A stretch of DNA of 64,000 nucleotides from a virus (IMGVR_UViG_3300028805_000046:96001-160000), one strand, 5' to 3'; positions 2,734-23,095 are shown, numbered from the stretch's first letter. The notes: generated by a model not told the origin, from the sequence alone. Made by a program: numbers and translations.

Positions 2734-4493
2734 TGGCAGACAGAAACACACTTATTCAGCAGGCGACTGATTGGGCCAAGAAACACCTTGACCCAAACTT
2801 TGAATTTAGAAAGTATCAGATCGAGTCAATCGTGATGATAATTGAGCGTGTTCTTGACAATGTTAAGACTCAGGTCATGAATGCGCCTACTGGTTCTGGC
2901 AAGTCGCTTACTGCAATCATTTCAGCAGGCACGCTATGGGAGTACTACAAGAAAACGACTTACATTCTTGTATCTGACCTTAGTTTGTTTGAACAGTATG
3001 AAAATGACCTTAAGCGCTATAACTTGAACTGGGGTCACTTGAAAGGCAAGGACAACTACGTTTGCCAACGAAACGGCAATATTGTGTCCTGTGGTGAATG
3101 CGCTTTGAATATGGTCAGTACGAAGACTTTAGAAGATCCTGAAAAGGCTGAAAAGTCAGGATATTCTTGCGCTAAGGAATGTGAATATGTCAAGATGCGA
3201 AATCTTGCAATGAAGTCGCCTGTAACTGTGATGACGTACCAGCTTTACTTAATTCAACGCAACTACGTCAATGATATGATGGGCGGTGAAGGATCTACTC
3301 CATTTCCAGAGCGTGATTTTGTCATTTGTGACGAAGCGCATAAGCTAAATGACATTATTCAGTCTCACTACGCACCAAGAATTCCGTTTGCGGTGCCTGA
3401 GTACATGAAGACACTGAATGCTTATGCCAAAAAGCACCGTATGAAAGTGCCGGAATCAGACAGAGTCACAATGTATGCAAATAAGTTGAATAAAGCTGAG
3501 TCGCATACTGAAATTCTGTCTTACATGCAGAAATTCTCAAGCCTTCTTTCCGAATACATGGACATCAATGAAGCAGTCCGTGCTGAGGCTCAGAAAACCC
3601 GTCAGTTTAGAAAGCTTAGAAGTGAACTTGCTGCGGGCAACATGGCTCGTGAATGCAACTGCAAGTTTGGCGACTTTATCACGCTTGCACAAGAACTTGG
3701 CCCTCAGATCGCCGTAAAGACTCCAGGTGAAGACGAGATTGTCATCAACTGTACTTACGAAGGCGATATGATTCAGAAGTACTTCCATAATGTCAGCAAG
3801 TGTGAACTGTTCATGTCAGCGACTTTGGGCAACTTGAAGCTCTATAAGGAGTTCATTGGCCTTAAAGATGCTCCTGCTGGACAGTATAAAGGACTTGATG
3901 TTCCAAGCACGTTTGACTACAGTAAGTCGCCTATCTATTTCAGCGAAAAGAACCCGATGTCTTACAAAGAAAAGGCAAAGTCCATTGGTCCTATCTGTAG
4001 ACAAATTACTGAAATAGCCAAGATATTCGCAAATCAGCGTGGAATCATTCAGACAGGCAACTACGAGAATACATCTAAGCTGCTCGACTATGCTCCGCCT
4101 GAATTGAAGTCTCGTCTGATTAAGTACTCTAACGCTCGTGAAAAGATGTACGCTATCACGCAGTTCCAGAAGAGCACTAACGGCATTCTTGTTGGACCTA
4201 CTTTGCTTGAAGGCTTGAACTTTGACGGCGATAAGTGCAGATTCTCTATCTGCATGAAACTTCCTTATCCTAACTTGTCTAACAATCTTGTCGCTGCAAA
4301 GAAAGACCTTATTCCTAACTGGTACGCATCAGCATGTATTGCCTCACTTGAGCAAGGCTTTGGTAGAGGCGTTCGTTTTGATGGCGACTGGTGTGTGAAC
4401 TACATTCTTGACGGCTGCATCGCTAACTTGATTAGATTCAATGGCGACCTGTTCTCAAGAAACACTCAAAACCGTCTAAAAGCACTCGGATAG
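2733..4493 (+). CDS. DinG/XPD/YoaA-family SF2 helicase
   Basis: Q motif FRKYQ, Walker A APTGSGKS, GKDNYVC plus Cys cluster, DEAH, SAT, EGLNF, KLPYP, QGFGRGVR. Confidence 0.92.
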   Translation: MADRNTLIQQATDWAKKHLDPNFEFRKYQIESIVMIIERVLDNVKTQVMNAPTGSGKSLTAIISAGTLWEYYKKTTYILVSDLSLFEQYENDLKRYNLNWGHLKGKDNYVCQRNGNIVSCGECALNMVSTKTLEDPEKAEKSGYSCAKECEYVKMRNLAMKSPVTVMTYQLYLIQRNYVNDMMGGEGSTPFPERDFVICDEAHKLNDIIQSHYAPRIPFAVPEYMKTLNAYAKKHRMKVPESDRVTMYANKLNKAESHTEILSYMQKFSSLLSEYMDINEAVRAEAQKTRQFRKLRSELAAGNMARECNCKFGDFITLAQELGPQIAVKTPGEDEIVINCTYEGDMIQKYFHNVSKCELFMSATLGNLKLYKEFIGLKDAPAGQYKGLDVPSTFDYSKSPIYFSEKNPMSYKEKAKSIGPICRQITEIAKIFANQRGIIQTGNYENTSKLLDYAPPELKSRLIKYSNAREKMYAITQFQKSTNGILVGPTLLEGLNFDGDKCRFSICMKLPYPNLSNNLVAAKKDLIPNWYASACIASLEQGFGRGVRFDGDWCVNYILDGCIANLIRFNGDLFSRNTQNRLKALG

Positions 4494-4552
4494 TTCTTGC
4501 CATCTGCCTCTATTTCTATTCTTGAATAAATAGAATAATAGAGGCATGAAAA

Positions 4553-5413
4553 ATGGCAGAATTGAATTTTAAAGATCCGCAAGTTGAAGGAAATAAAGTC
4601 CAAAAGCAGCCAGACCCAAAACCTGGGAACTTCTGCGCTGCTAGAGACGGTTTTCTTAGAGCTACATCTATCCAGAATGTATCTCAACTCATAGATTATG
4701 TAAAAAGAAAATTGGGCGCCCCACGCATTTGCGTTGAAATTGATGATGAGACCATTCTTTACACTATTAAAGACATCGTTGATTGGTTCCATAAGTACTA
4801 TCTTCAATACGGCTCCTATAAAGATTATCTTGTAATGGACCTTGTGCCAGGAACTACTCACTACAAGCTCTGCCAGGAGCTTGTTTCAGTAGTTGACTTC
4901 AAGACATCAAACTGGTTCGGCAGCATTAACGAACTCTTTACGGTTCCGCATGCTTTGCTTTATGACCAAGTGATGAATATGAATACTTGGCACGGTAACT
5001 GCTATGGCAACACTGCTGCTTATGGCGATGTTCTTGGCAGCTGGACAGCGACCCTTACATGGTTGGCGGAAGCAGACCAGATGTTTGGCGAAAAGTACCA
5101 AGTCAGTTACAATCCGCTTGAACAAGAACTTGAAGTACTGCCTGTTCCACAAAGACATGTGAAAGGCATTATGCAAGTCTATAAGAAGCAAAGAACCGAA
5201 AAGCTCTTTAACGATCCACTCTTCCGTAAGATGCTAGTCGCTGAATGCGGTAAGATCTGGACTAACTCGTTAAGAAAGTATAACCTGCAGATTGCCGGTG
5301 GTGGTTCTCTTAACGCTGACTCACTTTACTCCAGCTATGAAAAGGATTATGACTGGTGTGTTGAGCGTGTTGATAACGAATCACCGAACGGACACGTATT
5401 TGCTATAGCTTAA
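4553..5413 (+). CDS. Neck protein, T4 gp13-like
   Basis: LIDYVKRKLGAPRICVEI and C-terminal W…LRKY…GGGSLNAD pattern of gp13; late promoter at 4525-4532. Confidence 0.85.
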   Translation: MAELNFKDPQVEGNKVQKQPDPKPGNFCAARDGFLRATSIQNVSQLIDYVKRKLGAPRICVEIDDETILYTIKDIVDWFHKYYLQYGSYKDYLVMDLVPGTTHYKLCQELVSVVDFKTSNWFGSINELFTVPHALLYDQVMNMNTWHGNCYGNTAAYGDVLGSWTATLTWLAEADQMFGEKYQVSYNPLEQELEVLPVPQRHVKGIMQVYKKQRTEKLFNDPLFRKMLVAECGKIWTNSLRKYNLQIAGGGSLNADSLYSSYEKDYDWCVERVDNESPNGHVFAIA

Positions 5414-5419
5414 TTAACT

Positions 5420-5533
5420 TATTTGTAAAGGGACAAAATAGCACCACTCCGCTATTGACCGGGCTGCCACCCGGTCTTACCTTTATAAATACTATAGTAT
5501 TTGGCAGATACTTTTACATTTTAGGAGTGGTTT
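5420..5533 (+). promoter_or_regulatory. Structured RNA leader (copy A): three-way junction, kissing loop, anti-SD loop and embedded late promoter TATAAATA (5484-5491)
   Basis: P1 5420-31/5480-91. P2 AATAGC/GCTATT with loop ACCACTCC. P3 GACCGGG/CCCGGTC with loop CTGCCA. P4 AGTAT/ATACT with loop TTGGCAG. SD region GGAGTGGT. Confidence 0.85.
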
Positions 5534-6553
5534 ATGGGTAAACGAGTAAAGTTTACAGTCTATGCTGACTCACAGTCAGATCTTGATAGAATAAGAAAAA
5601 CATACGCAAATGATACAAGAGTCTTGATGCACTGTCAAGGCTGCGGCATACCTGTCTCCAAAGTATTGAAAAAGATCATTGGACGAGACTTTAATGATCT
5701 ATATTGTAGGTCTTGCGGTATTAAAGTCGCTACGTTTAATAAGTATGGCGTGATAAATGTTTTTCAGTTGGAAAGCACAAAAGAAACAATGAAGAAAACG
5801 TGTTTAGAAAAATACGGAGTTGAATATGTTTCACAAGATAGCGCTTTTAGAAAGAAAGTGGAAAATATCATTAAAGAAAGATACGGCGTAAGTAATATAA
5901 CACAAGTTGAGATGTTTAAGCAAAAAGCAAAGAAAACACGCTATGAAAAATATGATGGAAAATATCGGTCTGATGAAACAACAAATAAAATAAAAGAAAC
6001 TTGCTTAAAACGTTATGGATATGAAGTTCCATGTACTTCTCCAGAAAATTTAGAAAAATCTAAAGAAAGCATGAAGGAAAAGTATGGTTCTGAATACTTT
6101 TTTCATACAGCTGCATATAAACAACGAATGACAGAACTTTATGGTGGTGAAAATCCTGACTATTGTCCTTCTATACTTTCAAAGATGAAAAGAAAGTATA
6201 CTTTTGAAAATCTGCATTTTGATAGTACATGGGAAATTGCTTACTATATTTGGTTAAAAGATAACTGTAAAAACTTTACCGTTCATCCTAAAGAATACTT
6301 TTCATATACTTTTGATTCTAAAAAGCACAGATATCATCCAGATTTTCTTGTAGATGGAAAGTATGTAGAAATAAAAGGACCACATCTACTCAATGAAATG
6401 ATGAAAGAAAATACAATAAGTAATGCAAAATATAAATGCATGATTGAAAATGATGTAAAAGTCATTTCTGACCTGTCGCCTTATTTTATATTCCTTAAAA
6501 ATAAATATAATATAAGACCGGCAGATCTTCATCAGTATAAGAACTGCCAGTAG
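5534..6553 (+). CDS. Free-standing putative homing endonuclease (Zn-ribbon, KYG repeats, C-terminal PD-(D/E)XK domain)
   Basis: CxxC…CxxC; repeated K.T…KYGV units; FDSTWE…YHPDF…VEIKG. More AT-rich than its neighbours. Confidence 0.8.
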   Translation: MGKRVKFTVYADSQSDLDRIRKTYANDTRVLMHCQGCGIPVSKVLKKIIGRDFNDLYCRSCGIKVATFNKYGVINVFQLESTKETMKKTCLEKYGVEYVSQDSAFRKKVENIIKERYGVSNITQVEMFKQKAKKTRYEKYDGKYRSDETTNKIKETCLKRYGYEVPCTSPENLEKSKESMKEKYGSEYFFHTAAYKQRMTELYGGENPDYCPSILSKMKRKYTFENLHFDSTWEIAYYIWLKDNCKNFTVHPKEYFSYTFDSKKHRYHPDFLVDGKYVEIKGPHLLNEMMKENTISNAKYKCMIENDVKVISDLSPYFIFLKNKYNIRPADLHQYKNCQ

Positions 6554-8889: not shown

Positions 8890-10440
8890 ATGATAACAAA
8901 CATTATTAAGCGAGACGGCAGAAAGAAGAAATTTTCTATCACCAAGATCTCAAACGCAATTACCGCTGCATTTAACGAATCTGGGGAGAAATTTGATTCT
9001 GATGTCATTGATGGACTTGTAGACGCTGTTGTTGACCAACTTGAAAAGAAAGGTAGCAAGACAGTAAAGGTTGAAGAAGTACAGAATGTGATTGAAAACA
9101 CAATCATGGAATCTGGCTATCAGCAGACCGCAAAACGTTACATTCTCTATCGTGATGAAAGAAACCGTGTTCGTGACACAAACTCCGCGATTATCTCGAC
9201 CATTCGTGAAATCACTGAATCTGACATCAAGTCATCAAATATCTTGCGTGACAATGCAAACGAATCTGGCGCTACTCCTGCTGGTGCATTTGGTAAGATT
9301 GCATCTGAAACCAACAAGATGTACAATCTCTTGAACAAGATCAACAGAAAGTATGCTCAAGAACATAAAGATGGCTACATTCATATTCACGACTTGAACC
9401 AGTATAACTTGACATTCAACTGCTTGTTCGCTCCTGTAAAGAAGCTTCTTCTTTCTGGCTTTGACTCAGGCACTGGATATCTTCGTTCTCCATCTAGCAT
9501 TGAGACCGCTGCTGCCCTTACTGCTGTAATTTTGCAGTTGCAGTCAAATCAGCAGTTTGGTGGAATTGCTGATGACAACCTTGACTTCGATCTTGCACCG
9601 TTCGTTGACCGTTCATTCCGCGAGAACCTCGCTCATGAACTTAACAGGATTGCTAATCGTTCAACAACTGGCGAATATACAGAATTTAAGGGTAACTGGA
9701 AACAAGACCACAAGACGTTCGTGAAGATTCTAGAGAATAGAGGCATTTCAATGAATAGCCCGACTGCAGTTCTCTATAAGTACTTCCCGACTTACGCAGT
9801 TGATGATGCGATAGACCAGACTGATATGGACACTCATCAGGCCATGGAAGGTCTTATTGGTAACCTTAACTCCTTGCAGTCTCGCTCAGGAAACCAAGTT
9901 CCGTTCTCGTCATTGAACTTTGGTCTTGACACTTCTAACTGTGGACGAATGGTCTCCAAGAACCTTATTCGTTCTCAAATGGAAGGTCTCGGCGATGGAT
10001 TGACTGCAATCTTCCCAATCTTGATTTTCAAGTTAATGAAAGGCTACACTAAGAATCCTGAAGATCCTAACTATGACCTTTACCTTGACTCTATCAAGTG
10101 CTTGGCAAGAAGATTCTATCCGAACTTCATTTCAGTAGACAGCTCGTTCAATAAGCCTTATGTAAAGTATAGAACTACTGACATCAACTTGTCTAATTTC
10201 CCGGCTATCTTCGCAAAGGTCCGTGGAAAGGACGAAACGAAGGATTTGCCTACTTCCGTAAATCAGGACTTTGGAACTCCGATTTATGAATTTGAACTCA
10301 AGCCTGGCGAATGGTGGGAAATTACAAGAATTGAGAATAGCGTCCTTTATCTCCGTCGTTTGATTGAGAACACTACTGTTTCTGCTATGGGATGCGCCGA
10401 TGGCGAGGAAACTGTAAAAATCAGAGTAAACGGCAAGTAA
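8890..10440 (+). CDS. nrdD: Class III anaerobic ribonucleotide reductase, N-terminal half (ATP cone), fused to a 15-aa split-intein N-fragment
   Basis: IIKRDGR ATP cone, NANE, GYIHIHDL, FNC, QFGG, SRSGNQVPFSS, IFPI, RRFYPNF. Ends SAMG-CADGEETVKIRVNGK-stop. Confidence 0.95.
   Translation: MITNIIKRDGRKKKFSITKISNAITAAFNESGEKFDSDVIDGLVDAVVDQLEKKGSKTVKVEEVQNVIENTIMESGYQQTAKRYILYRDERNRVRDTNSAIISTIREITESDIKSSNILRDNANESGATPAGAFGKIASETNKMYNLLNKINRKYAQEHKDGYIHIHDLNQYNLTFNCLFAPVKKLLLSGFDSGTGYLRSPSSIETAAALTAVILQLQSNQQFGGIADDNLDFDLAPFVDRSFRENLAHELNRIANRSTTGEYTEFKGNWKQDHKTFVKILENRGISMNSPTAVLYKYFPTYAVDDAIDQTDMDTHQAMEGLIGNLNSLQSRSGNQVPFSSLNFGLDTSNCGRMVSKNLIRSQMEGLGDGLTAIFPILIFKLMKGYTKNPEDPNYDLYLDSIKCLARRFYPNFISVDSSFNKPYVKYRTTDINLSNFPAIFAKVRGKDETKDLPTSVNQDFGTPIYEFELKPGEWWEITRIENSVLYLRRLIENTTVSAMGCADGEETVKIRVNGK
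10393..10437 (+). mobile_element. Split intein N-fragment (IntN, 15 aa) in NrdD
   Basis: Block A-like CADGEETVKI starts exactly where the conserved MG|CRT Cys is expected. Confidence 0.85.
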
Positions 10441-10443
10441 TTC

Positions 10444-10567
10444 ATTTATGCAGGGACAGACTAATATGCTTTCCATAAGTTTGACGCATTTTCCGGATGC
10501 GTCTAACCTGCATTTTATAAATAATCTGAGAACCGGAAATTCTCTTTTTATTTTAAAGGAAAGCACA
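10444..10567 (+). promoter_or_regulatory. Structured RNA leader (copy B), same architecture as 5420..5533, late promoter at 10516-10523
   Basis: P1 ATGCAGG/CCTGCAT. P2 loop GCTTTCC versus SD region GGAAAGC. P3 GACGCAT/ATGCGTC with loop TTTCCGG. P4 GAGAA/TTCTC with loop CCGGAAA. Confidence 0.85.
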
Positions 10568-11233
10568 ATGAATTATCAGCATTTATACGATATGCTTTGT
10601 GAAAAGGCATATAATCGTTTTTCTGATTTTTATATTAGATCTTCTAGTTTAAGAATCGTCAAATCAATCATTTACAGAGAAACAGACTACAAATATCTTG
10701 AAGCTCATCATAAGTTACCTAAATGTGATGGTGGTTTAGATGAACTTTCAAATTTAGTGTTTTTTACTCCTAAAGAACATATAGTTGCTCATCATTTACT
10801 TTTTAAAGCACAGCCTACACCAAAACATGCACAAGCCTGGCATTTACAATCGCATTCTTCAAAATCCGGTTTACAGATTAAACTTACTGCTAAAGAATTT
10901 GAAGAAACAAGAAAAATAAACGCGGAAAATGCAAGAAAACAAATTTATGAAACAAATAGAAAAATGCGTGAAAGCGGTCGCAGATTTGGTGAAGGCAATT
11001 CTATGTATGGACGAATCTGGTACACAAATGGAATTAAAAACATTATATTAAAACCTTCTGATATTGTTCCAGATGGATTCTATAAAGGTAGATTGAATGT
11101 TGTTCCAAAAGATAAACATAAATCAACAACTGGAATGTGTTGGTATAATGATGGTACTATAAATAAAATGTTCAAAGAAACTGATAACATACCGTTAAAT
11201 TTTCAAAAAGGAATGCTAAAATGCAAGAAATAA
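10568..11233 (+). CDS. Free-standing HNH homing endonuclease with NUMOD-type DNA-binding repeats
   Basis: MNYQHLY…EAHHKLPKCDGG.D..SNLV..TPKEH..AH.LL; GEGNSMYG; two WY.N/DG repeats. Start placed at 10568 after the AAAGGA SD. Confidence 0.9.
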   Translation: MNYQHLYDMLCEKAYNRFSDFYIRSSSLRIVKSIIYRETDYKYLEAHHKLPKCDGGLDELSNLVFFTPKEHIVAHHLLFKAQPTPKHAQAWHLQSHSSKSGLQIKLTAKEFEETRKINAENARKQIYETNRKMRESGRRFGEGNSMYGRIWYTNGIKNIILKPSDIVPDGFYKGRLNVVPKDKHKSTTGMCWYNDGTINKMFKETDNIPLNFQKGMLKCKK

Positions 11234-11634
11234 AATTCAAAGACATGTGGGATCAATTTAGTCAAGAATATGAAGTTCAGCGATATTCTGAAATTTCTGA
11301 ATTCATTGACCTTGAGCCTTATGATGTTGAAATCTTTGATAATGCACTTCAGGATTATGTAAAGTGCAAGAAACTTATAAAGAATCATCAGGTCACCAAT
11401 TGGACAGAAGTATCATTCTCTAATGGTAAAGTTCTTCGCTTGACCGATGACCATCCTCTTTACCTTGAACGCGGAAGAACTTATGTTCGTGACGTTGAGG
11501 AAGGCGACAAAATCAGATATCTTGACACAATCGTTGAAGTTACTGAAGTTCGTTATGTAGAACGAGTTGCTGACTCTTATGACGTGGAGACTGTTTCTGA
11601 CCGTTTTGAACTATCTGGCTTTAACTCTGGAAAC
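11221..11634 (+). mobile_element. Split intein C-fragment (IntC, 138 aa)
   Basis: Block B TxxH, block F YDVET, terminal Asn followed by Cys+1; has its own AAAGGA SD. Confidence 0.88.
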
Positions 11635-12651
11635 TGCCGCACAAGAGTCCTTGGTAACGTCAATGGCACTGAGCAGACCACGGGTAGGGGAAACCTTGCT
11701 TTCCACACCATCAACTTGCCAAGACTTGCTATTGAAGCACATATCAAGGAAACTGATGAAGAAGCTAGAAAGGAATTCTTCTTCAAGCGTCTTGACGAAA
11801 TTCTTGAAGATGTAAAGGGTTCATTGATTGACAGATTCATTCTTATCAGCAAGAAGACCTTTGAAAATTATCCGTTTACTATGCAGCAAGGTCTTTACCT
11901 TACTTCTGATGATACTAAACATCAGATTACTGATACTGTTGCAGAAATCCTTAAGCAGGGTACTTTGTCAATCGGATATGTTGGTCTTGCAGAAACAATG
12001 ACCCTTTTGACTGGAAAGACTTATGGCGTGGATCACGACATTGATAAGTTGGCGTTCTCCGTCGTTAAGCGCATTCGTGATTTCTGCGACAAGACACAGA
12101 AAGAAACCAAGCTTAACTGGTCATGCTTTGCTACTCCTGCTGAAGCGACCGCCGGAAGATTCGCAAATATTGACAAGAATAAGTTCCAGCATGAAAAGAA
12201 ACTAAAGGATGTTGACCTTCAGCGCATTTTCGGTAAAGGCTACTATACTAACTCGCACATGATTGACTTCTCTTTGCCTACTTCATTGCAGAATAAGATC
12301 GCTACTGAAGCGCCGTTCCACAAGATCACAAACGCTGGACATATTTTCTACTATAAAATGAACGGTGACCTTACACAGAACCCTGAAGCAGTGAAGAAGG
12401 TCATTGACACAATGTATGACGGCGACCTTGGATATTTCACTATCACGATGGATTCTGACGACTGCCTTGAATGTGGTTACCACGGAATCATCAATGACGG
12501 TGGCTGTCCAAAATGTGGAAACAAGAATGAAGACAAGATTGTTCGAGTTCGTCGCATTACTGGATATTTGACAGGTTCGCCACGTAAATCTATAACTAAA
12601 TCATGGAATGACGGCAAACTTGCTGAACTTAGAGATAGACAGAACACCTAA
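11221..12651 (+). CDS. nrdD: Split-intein C-fragment fused to the NrdD C-terminal half (glycyl-radical domain)
   Basis: Intein blocks LTDDHPL and SYDVET…SGN, then CRTRV, GRGNL, TINLPR, TPAE, YYTNS, CxxC…CPKCG, RRITGYL. Confidence 0.95.
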   Translation: MQEIKFKDMWDQFSQEYEVQRYSEISEFIDLEPYDVEIFDNALQDYVKCKKLIKNHQVTNWTEVSFSNGKVLRLTDDHPLYLERGRTYVRDVEEGDKIRYLDTIVEVTEVRYVERVADSYDVETVSDRFELSGFNSGNCRTRVLGNVNGTEQTTGRGNLAFHTINLPRLAIEAHIKETDEEARKEFFFKRLDEILEDVKGSLIDRFILISKKTFENYPFTMQQGLYLTSDDTKHQITDTVAEILKQGTLSIGYVGLAETMTLLTGKTYGVDHDIDKLAFSVVKRIRDFCDKTQKETKLNWSCFATPAEATAGRFANIDKNKFQHEKKLKDVDLQRIFGKGYYTNSHMIDFSLPTSLQNKIATEAPFHKITNAGHIFYYKMNGDLTQNPEAVKKVIDTMYDGDLGYFTITMDSDDCLECGYHGIINDGGCPKCGNKNEDKIVRVRRITGYLTGSPRKSITKSWNDGKLAELRDRQNT

Positions 12652-22751: not shown

Positions 22752-23095
22752 CCCGTTCAATAAAAGCCGTTTCCTCGGAACGAACAGCAACCCAATGCGA
22801 GTATCGGTAGAGGGACGCCATTGGAGTTGTGATGTAGGCAACTTCCGTAAAATGAATGGGTAGAAAGTTTCCAGTTTATCTGATGTATGCTTGTCACCAT
22901 TAATGAATTTCTACAAGCGAAGAGAGGAATCACAAATCTCTCATACAGCCGCCAATAGCACTCAAGGATGTAGTCGGAATACAGGTTGACCGCTCCGTAA
23001 GCCTTGATGGTAAGTCTACTTAAGTCATGCAGTTACACAGTTATAAGAAAAAAAGCATGATGACAGTAAGTTCCTGAATAGGCTTACTGTCTTCA
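22752..23095 (+). ncRNA. Candidate structured non-coding RNA of unknown family
   Basis: No ORF of 60 aa or more; TATATT -10 at 22742; at least 7 helices, including a long-range one; strong terminal hairpin 23062-23091. Confidence 0.55.

Follow-up and report, generated by a model that had tools for sequence, protein, structure and literature searches.

How might a selfish nuclease gene be kept quiet while it lies inside the transcription unit of its host, and why should two homing endonuclease genes (HEGs), whose proteins have no detectable similarity to each other, be preceded by one and the same RNA motif? Both questions are raised by a stretch of 64,000 nucleotides of viral DNA (hereafter, the window), in which the original prediction, made from the nucleotide sequence, had recognised two related leaders, copy A at 5420-5533 and copy B at 10444-10567. 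The string on which their relationship was based, AGGGACA..TTGAC..GTCTWACCT, has exactly two matches in the window, at 5429-5482 and 10452-10509 on the + strand, and matched none of 100 dinucleotide shuffles of the window. Two is also the total number of copies in the 184.7-kb virus record that contains the window, and other large phage records carry from zero to two copies of the motif.

The two leaders share their fold as well as their fixed nucleotides (Table 1). In particular, P1 closes a three-way junction in which P2 and P3 abut with no linker between them, and the junction is followed by the hairpin P4, a U-rich linker and the Shine-Dalgarno (SD) sequence. The cores obtained with ViennaRNA have z = -3.7 (A) and -3.0 (B), and the relatives described below lend comparative support to this architecture. 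A covariance model composed of P1, P3 and the base of P2 (R1) scores the three-way junction of copy A (5420-5491) at 51.5 bits (E 2e-14) and that of copy B (10448-10513) at 53.6 bits (E 5e-15).

Table 1. Elements of the two leaders, the genes and cassette associated with them, and the late-promoter-like boxes, numbered from the first nucleotide of the window.
Feature	Position	Strand	Remarks
Copy A P1	5420-5431/5480-5491	+	12 bp; ViennaRNA folding
Copy A J1/2	5432-5434	+	GAC
Copy A P2	5437-5442/5451-5456	+	L2 ACCACUCC at 5443-5450
Copy A P3	5457-5463/5470-5476	+	L3 CUGCCA at 5464-5469
Copy A J3/1	5477-5479	+	UUA
Copy A TATAAATA late-promoter-like box	5484-5491	+	within P1 3' strand
Copy A P4 hairpin	5496-5500/5508-5512	+	AGUAU-UUGGCAG-AUACU; loop bases 5502-5507 complementary to L3
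Copy A SD region	5524-5531	+	GGAGUGGU; complement of L2; start codon 5534-5536
Homing endonuclease gene A	5534-6553	+	339 aa; DUF7487 (Pfam, E 7e-24); PHROG 'homing endonuclease'
Copy B P1	10448-10454/10507-10513	+	ViennaRNA folding
Copy B J1/2	10455-10457	+	GAC
Copy B P2	10458-10482	+	L2 GCUUUCC at 10468-10474
Copy B P3	10483-10489/10497-10503	+	L3 UUUCCGG at 10490-10496
Copy B J3/1	10504-10506	+	UAA
Copy B TATAAATA late-promoter-like box	10516-10523	+	3 nt past P1
Copy B P4 hairpin	10528-10532/10540-10544	+	GAGAA-CCGGAAA-UUCUC; loop CCGGAAA complementary to L3
Copy B SD region	10558-10565	+	GGAAAGCA; complement of L2; start codon 10568-10570
HNH homing endonuclease gene B	10568-11233	+	221 aa; MobB-like; phrog_655, E 3e-25
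Mobile cassette B, whole	10434-11225	+	exact absence from relative L164
TATAAATA boxes	5484, 8678, 10516, 11158, 20525, 28698, 31184, 37320, 42648	+	

The two-copy comparison of the original prediction could be extended, as a covariance model, once built and searched, returned further homologs and significant helix covariation. Pattern scans over viral, genome and metagenome collections gave 169 loci, most of them chance matches, and R1 gave 39 matches, 36 of which are distinct, in uncultured phages. Among the 36 structured members, 34 score 34-64 bits, as opposed to 17-30 bits for chance pattern matches. Two members, L185 (26.7 bits) and L164b (23.8 bits), score within the chance range and are retained on account of the perfect downstream complements of their two loops. 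Three others, which the counts given here on 36 distinct members include, are of doubtful membership: L196 (28.7 bits), L194 (21.3 bits) and L203 (37.3 bits) lack a downstream loop complement, and no nuclease gene was detected behind them. On this set, paired cells amount to 88.9% (70.9% in shuffles) and double-sided changes occur in 11 of the 16 pairs. The P1/P3 covariation score is 0.471 against 0.143 when shuffled, a value reached by none of 500 shuffles, and shifting the partners by 1-3 columns cuts pairing to 35-55%. Moreover, the mid-region folds on its own as two abutting hairpins that span it entirely in 32 of the 36 members. A protein-guided search with the product of gene A gave 4 loci, and one with that of gene B found nothing in viral contigs.

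The nucleotides shared by the two copies recur across these relatives, with one correction: the GAC of TTGAC and the GTC of GTCT, which had been taken for fixed junction residues, are the basal pairs of P3 and covary, appearing as GAC/GUC, GAA/UUC or GGG/CCC. What is invariant is the set AGG, GAC, A-G..(P2)..U-U, G..(P3)..C, UWA and CCU, that is, about 17 nucleotides that persist in phages ranging from 32% to 68% GC. A G-U wobble at the base of P2 is conserved in 31 of the 36 members, which suggests that the conserved entity is a sense-strand RNA and not DNA.

The two long-range pairings expected from the original prediction are exact in both copies. Specifically, L3 is complementary to the P4 loop (L4) over 6 nt in copy A (CTGCCA/TGGCAG) and over 7 nt in copy B (TTTCCGG/CCGGAAA), and L2 is complementary over 8 nt to the gene's own SD region, as ACCACTCC/GGAGTGGT in copy A (SD side at 5524-5531) and TGCTTTCC/GGAAAGCA in copy B (SD side at 10558-10565). 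The corresponding L2/SD duplexes are computed at -15.0 kcal/mol for copy A, against a null mean of -7.6, and at -12.5 kcal/mol for copy B, against a null minimum of -9.1. Both contacts covary across relatives, including L184, L185 and L164b, and thus have comparative support. The closest view of this process is offered by copy A (WA) and its ortholog L184, which are syntenic and share 71% nucleotide identity. Between them, compensatory changes have occurred in P3 (CCGGG/CCCGG to CUGAG/CUCAG), in the loop-loop kiss (CUGCCA/UGGCAG to CUGACA/UGUCAG) and in the anti-SD helix (ACCACUCC/GGAGUGGU to UUAGCUCC/GGAGCUAA).

At the level of the family, the pairings were tabulated as exact Watson-Crick complements of at least 6 nt lying within 110 nt downstream in 34 leaders, because the columns of a MAFFT alignment of whole leaders were structurally inconsistent. 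Such a complement exists for L2 in 16 of the 34 leaders (8% with shuffled loops), for L3 in 23 of the 34 (17% with shuffled loops) and for both loops in 14. In 12 distinct leaders (WA, WB, L184, L185, L164b, L081, L114, L189, L192, L188a, L188b and L005) the P4 loop is a perfect complement, 6-8 nt long, of one of the junction loops, on a P4 stem that is different each time. In 11 of these 12 the other loop finds its complement at the SD or start codon; in L005, where the L2-P4 kiss alone is clear, the second loop has a match of just 3-4 nt. The loops are not tied to one role: in the lineage of the window L3 kisses P4 and L2 is complementary to the SD, and the roles are swapped in L081, L189, L192, L188a/b and L114, where L2 kisses P4 and L3 faces the SD or AUG.

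A second group of leaders (L144, L004, L007a/b, L195a/b, L190, L191, L198 and L193) adopts a short form, with neither P4 nor promoter box, in which L3 pairs with an SD located 10-20 nt past P1. As these relatives have no internal promoter, a bypass of the kind discussed below is not possible there. In a survey of L144, L004, L007, L195, L190, L191, L198, L193 and L116, most short-form L2 loops hold a self-complementary stretch (UGAUCA, GUAAUUAC, GUAGCUAC, AGCU, GGCC or AUUAAU), L195b being the exception. This suggests that two such leader RNAs could dimerise by loop-loop contact, a feature absent from the window copies. Open reading frames behind short-form leaders (L007:4176-4300, L007:10956-11050 and L195:930-1000) are broken by in-frame TGA codons, for example MKQCTKCKE*KE..., which reflects either decay of the endonuclease gene or recoding of TGA. 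In addition, endonuclease reading frames cut to about 45 codons are found behind intact leaders at L004:6984-7121, L005:755-889 and L005:5279-5416, as if the RNA leader outlasted the nuclease gene.

The element that would permit a bypass in the window is the TATAAATA box, which occurs 10 times there against 2.2 expected (about 4.5-fold), nine times on the + strand. A distance of 22-56 nt separates seven of these nine from the start of a reading frame downstream. This enrichment and strand bias are consistent with late promoters of the T4 type in the phage of the window. The box had been placed at the 3' strand of P1, which is correct for copy A, where it lies inside P1, but not for copy B, where it follows P1; in both it stands between the junction and P4, and exactly 4 nt separate its end from P4. 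The same layout, that is, the box, 1-6 nt and then P4, is found in L184, L185, L164b, L081 and L005b. If the geometry of T4 late promoters applies, as we assume, transcripts would start at about 5496-5498 in copy A and about 10529 in copy B, on the first bases of P4. Late RNAs starting at P4 would therefore lack the junction and its two loops.

The extent of the mobile unit is given by a relative, L164, which is 93-96% identical to the window and lacks exactly 10434-11225. There, position 10433 is joined straight to 11226, in frame (...KIRVNG/EIKFKD...), and nrdD, the gene for anaerobic ribonucleotide reductase, is intact; it follows that nrdD is split by a mobile cassette whose 5' end is the RNA. 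In the window nrdD consists of two reading frames, 8890-10440 and 11221-12651, with cassette B between them. In order, the cassette supplies a Lys codon and a stop codon for NrdD-N, the three-way junction, the TATAAATA box, P4, the SD and the HNH gene. Embedded in the 3' end of the latter are a second TATAAATA (11158-11165), an SD and the ATG (11221; ATG-CAA) that restarts NrdD-C. In other words, one insertion brings all the signals for a working nrdD gene-in-pieces: stop codon, putative lock, promoter, SD and start codon. The interruption recalls the nrdD intron of T4, but a group I intron carrying an intron-encoded endonuclease can be rejected here, as Intron_gpI has no match at E up to 10 in 10380-11700 and the stop codon together with the cassette's own SD/ATG yields two NrdD polypeptides. 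In place of cassette B, L164 has an insert of 2 kb (3409-5461, - strand) that the window lacks. It follows the nrdD stop codon directly, opens with a divergent copy of the motif (L164b) and codes for a DUF7487 protein of 673 aa; a diverged 44-bp duplicate of the nrdD 3' end flanks it.

The genes behind the leaders were originally assigned to two nuclease superfamilies. For gene B this stands: its HNH motif aligns with that of the HNH protein of L081, and its homologs in 351 phage records are annotated as mobile or homing endonucleases. The PD-(D/E)XK label of gene A, on the other hand, found no support in PDB or NCBIfam. Across the relatives, the genes downstream encode several Pfam HNH types, GIY-YIG, DUF7487, DUF559 and zinc-finger (CapR/DUF4379) nuclease-like proteins, so that the idea of a portable leader of unrelated selfish nucleases holds across nucleases. 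It does not hold as an exclusive association, because three P2-like prophages of high GC carry the motif without an endonuclease (L002:7191-7264, L010:3031-3096 and L148:89-152, all on the - strand). Each time it fills a spacer of about 120 nt that follows the major capsid gene; the next gene in L002 and L010 encodes a P2-type small terminase. In the cultured phages P2, Smp131, vB_CB1 and RS-AB1, genes N and M abut and no motif is present. The P2-like members have an L3 of tetraloop or triloop size and no loop-SD complement, which implies that the conserved core has some role independent of SD masking. Likewise, five cultured phages that possess MobB-like homologs of gene B have no leader and no motif. 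A further setting is that of L114:57-279, where two tRNA genes (57-127 and 138-210) are followed, 2 nt past the second, by the motif and then by a NUMOD3/DUF7487 endonuclease; an endonuclease cassette in a tRNA cluster is also known from segB of T4.

The statement that the motif belongs to no named family was borne out, as no Rfam 15 family, riboswitches and self-cleaving ribozymes included, matches the two leaders at E up to 10 or the motif in 16 homologous loci at E up to 1. No description of the leader motif was found in the literature searched. The sole Rfam match in the window lies away from the motif: it is a full-length cow-rumen-2 RNA (RF02947) at 22916-23022 (+), with 87.8 bits over a gathering score of 66, and points to a rumen or gut origin of the phage.

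A likeness to one known family, int-alpA (RF02996), is nevertheless visible by eye. Both consist of a three-way junction placed directly before the SD in genes of phages or mobile elements, and int-alpA has an anti-SD-like CCUU loop, in its P3. The linear order of int-alpA in the model alignment, P1-UA-P2-GAAAA-P3-CU-P1, is not that of the window motif; if, however, P3, P1 and P2 of the motif are laid onto P1, P2 and P3 of int-alpA, UWA corresponds to UA, GAC(A) to GAAAA and UU to CU. The same permuted mapping aligns the flanking C/G closers and puts the anti-SD loop L2 of the window on int-alpA P3. Unlike the window motif, the int-alpA model has no P4 kiss. Profile searches gave no match in either direction: the int-alpA model (gathering 35.8 bits) found nothing in the leaders (E up to 10), the 16 loci (E up to 1) or 5 phage records searched in full (E up to 0.01), and R1 found nothing in ten int-alpA loci. 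That the motif is a circular permutation of int-alpA is therefore plausible but unproven.

Taken as a whole, the arrangement of these leaders suggests that each of them is probably a translational lock, acting in cis on read-through RNA and bypassed by the internal late promoter. According to this model, the lock travels as the 5' end of a homing endonuclease cassette. In transcripts that read in from the upstream host gene, the three-way junction would fold first; one of its loops would then kiss the P4 loop, and the other would pair with the SD or start-codon region. This compact double pseudoknot would hold the ribosome-binding site (RBS) closed, so that no nuclease would be made. Late transcripts from TATAAATA, which are predicted to begin at the base of P4, would retain P4, the U-rich linker and the RBS while being devoid of both masking loops, and should be translatable. 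Nested folding gives a similar SD accessibility for late and read-through RNA, a result that is uninformative because pseudoknots lie outside such models. Copy A could also form a weak alternative hairpin, UACUUUUA/UAGGAGUG, by which the SD would be hidden on late RNA as well.

A broader conception, which we consider rather unlikely, is that the junction docks a factor, a ligand or a second RNA, making the lock switchable or able to act in trans, and that it forms with int-alpA a single permuted superfamily of RBS clamps carried between genomes by mobile phage cassettes (endonucleases, morons and terminase modules).

An intercistronic role has to be weighed next. That is, the junction might block ribosome coupling from the upstream gene, protect the 3' end of the upstream mRNA or undergo cleavage, autocatalytic or by an RNase, that sets the cassette mRNA apart, with SD masking as a secondary effect. 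The position of the motif would suit such an insulator, stability element or processing site, as in A, B and L164b it lies 7-16 nt past the stop codon of the preceding gene, in the P2-like prophages it stands where N and M usually overlap, and in L114 it directly follows tRNA genes. This explanation, however, leaves the perfect and covarying loop complements to P4 and to the SD without a reason, finds no counterpart among known ribozyme families and appears to us improbable.

Decidedly improbable, in our judgement, is a function in trans, in which a junction RNA derived from read-through transcripts or processed from them would bind late endonuclease mRNAs as an antisense and titrate nuclease synthesis; as with plasmid copy-control RNAs, binding would begin with the kiss at P4 and reach completion at the SD. 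CopA/CopT and RNA I/RNA II first kiss through their loops over 6-8 nt and then block an RBS by a second contact, and a two-contact design made of a kiss and a second helix is typical of these systems. Both target sites are kept in the predicted late transcripts, the possibly related int-alpA is typed as sRNA in Rfam, and P3 of copy A scores as terminator-like and could release a short RNA. Junction and targets are nonetheless present on one read-through RNA, so that pairing in cis is kinetically favoured. Moreover, P3 of copy B and of most relatives precedes the conserved CUAACCU and no U-tract, and no separate promoter is seen before the junction.

We attach equally little probability to a regulated switch, whose invariant junction would bind a host or phage protein or a small ligand and thereby open or close the lock. 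The persistence of the invariant nucleotides over so wide a range of GC contents and the retention of the core in P2-like members devoid of loop-SD pairing would be in keeping with a binding site. Yet no conserved alternative, mutually exclusive fold exists, no riboswitch family matches, and the invariant residues fit a purely structural signature. The UAA/GAN motif has the signature ccUAAg/uGAagg (more generally cUAAg/uGAng), in which a U:A trans pair stacks on a Watson-Crick pair, and 'UA_h 3WJ' motifs carry a helix inserted at its bulge (PMC2615604). At the level of sequence resemblance, the strands C-UAA-C / G-GA-C[P2]-G of the motif match this UAA/GAN (UA_handle) signature, with P2 at the bulge; UAA is found in 28 of the 36 members and UUA in 8. 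The match offers a structural reason for the invariance of the junction (C-UWA-C / G-GA-C[P2]-G), which is most likely a UA_handle core of the UAA/GAN type and seems better explained in this way than as a catalytic or ligand site. By holding the arms in place, such a core would turn both loops towards the RBS region.

Finally, a DNA-level signal is very improbable, since a sigma-70 promoter made of TTGAC (-35) and TWACCT (-10), suggested by the -35-like TTGAC, is rejected by a spacing that varies from 12 to 22 nt and by the covariation of these bases as pairs (GAC/GTC), a terminator by the fact that P3 is flagged in copy A alone and is followed by the conserved CUWACCU, and any signal of the DNA by the strand-specific G-U wobble, the group I intron having been dealt with above.

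The lock that we favour bears on a general problem, as HEG cassettes insert into essential genes of a phage that must survive the insertion, and their self-limitation is known for few cases, the simple hairpins of T-even phages. Here, instead, a conserved and portable RNA module is found in at least 36 distinct leaders and before four or more unrelated nuclease families, and is a well-defined candidate for a new Rfam family. It represents a natural pseudoknot design with two contacts, kiss and anti-SD, that is open to testing with compensatory mutants, and possibly a case of circular permutation among natural regulatory RNAs. What is new here comprises the exact boundary of the cassette with its gene-in-pieces signals and the UAA/GAN reading of the junction, together with the findings that both tertiary contacts covary between orthologs, that the two loops exchange roles from one lineage to another, that P2-like prophages carry the motif with no endonuclease gene and that nine cultured phages lack it.

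With respect to known control systems, CopA/CopT and RNA I/RNA II act in trans between transcripts, whereas the partners of the window motif are on one RNA. A nearer parallel is provided by the homing endonucleases of T-even phages. Sequestration of the RBS by a simple hairpin, with bypass by a late promoter, is established for I-TevI, I-TevII, I-TevIII, segB and Aeh1 mobE (PMC2988022). As in the T-even HEGs, the endonuclease gene of the window is embedded in a host transcription unit, its SD or start codon is complementary to leader sequence further upstream, with which it would pair on read-through RNA, and a late box is placed so that the predicted late RNA lacks the inhibitory strand. In addition, like Aeh1 mobE in nrdA, cassette B splits a ribonucleotide reductase gene (PMC2988022). 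The differences are equally clear: instead of a single local stem-loop, the partner of the SD is a loop of a three-way junction located about 75-90 nt upstream, with the P4 kiss in addition, and the same junction sequence recurs with unrelated nuclease families and in different phage groups. By analogy, the regulatory principle would be the known one of I-TevI and mobE, built in this case with a conserved junction and two loop contacts.
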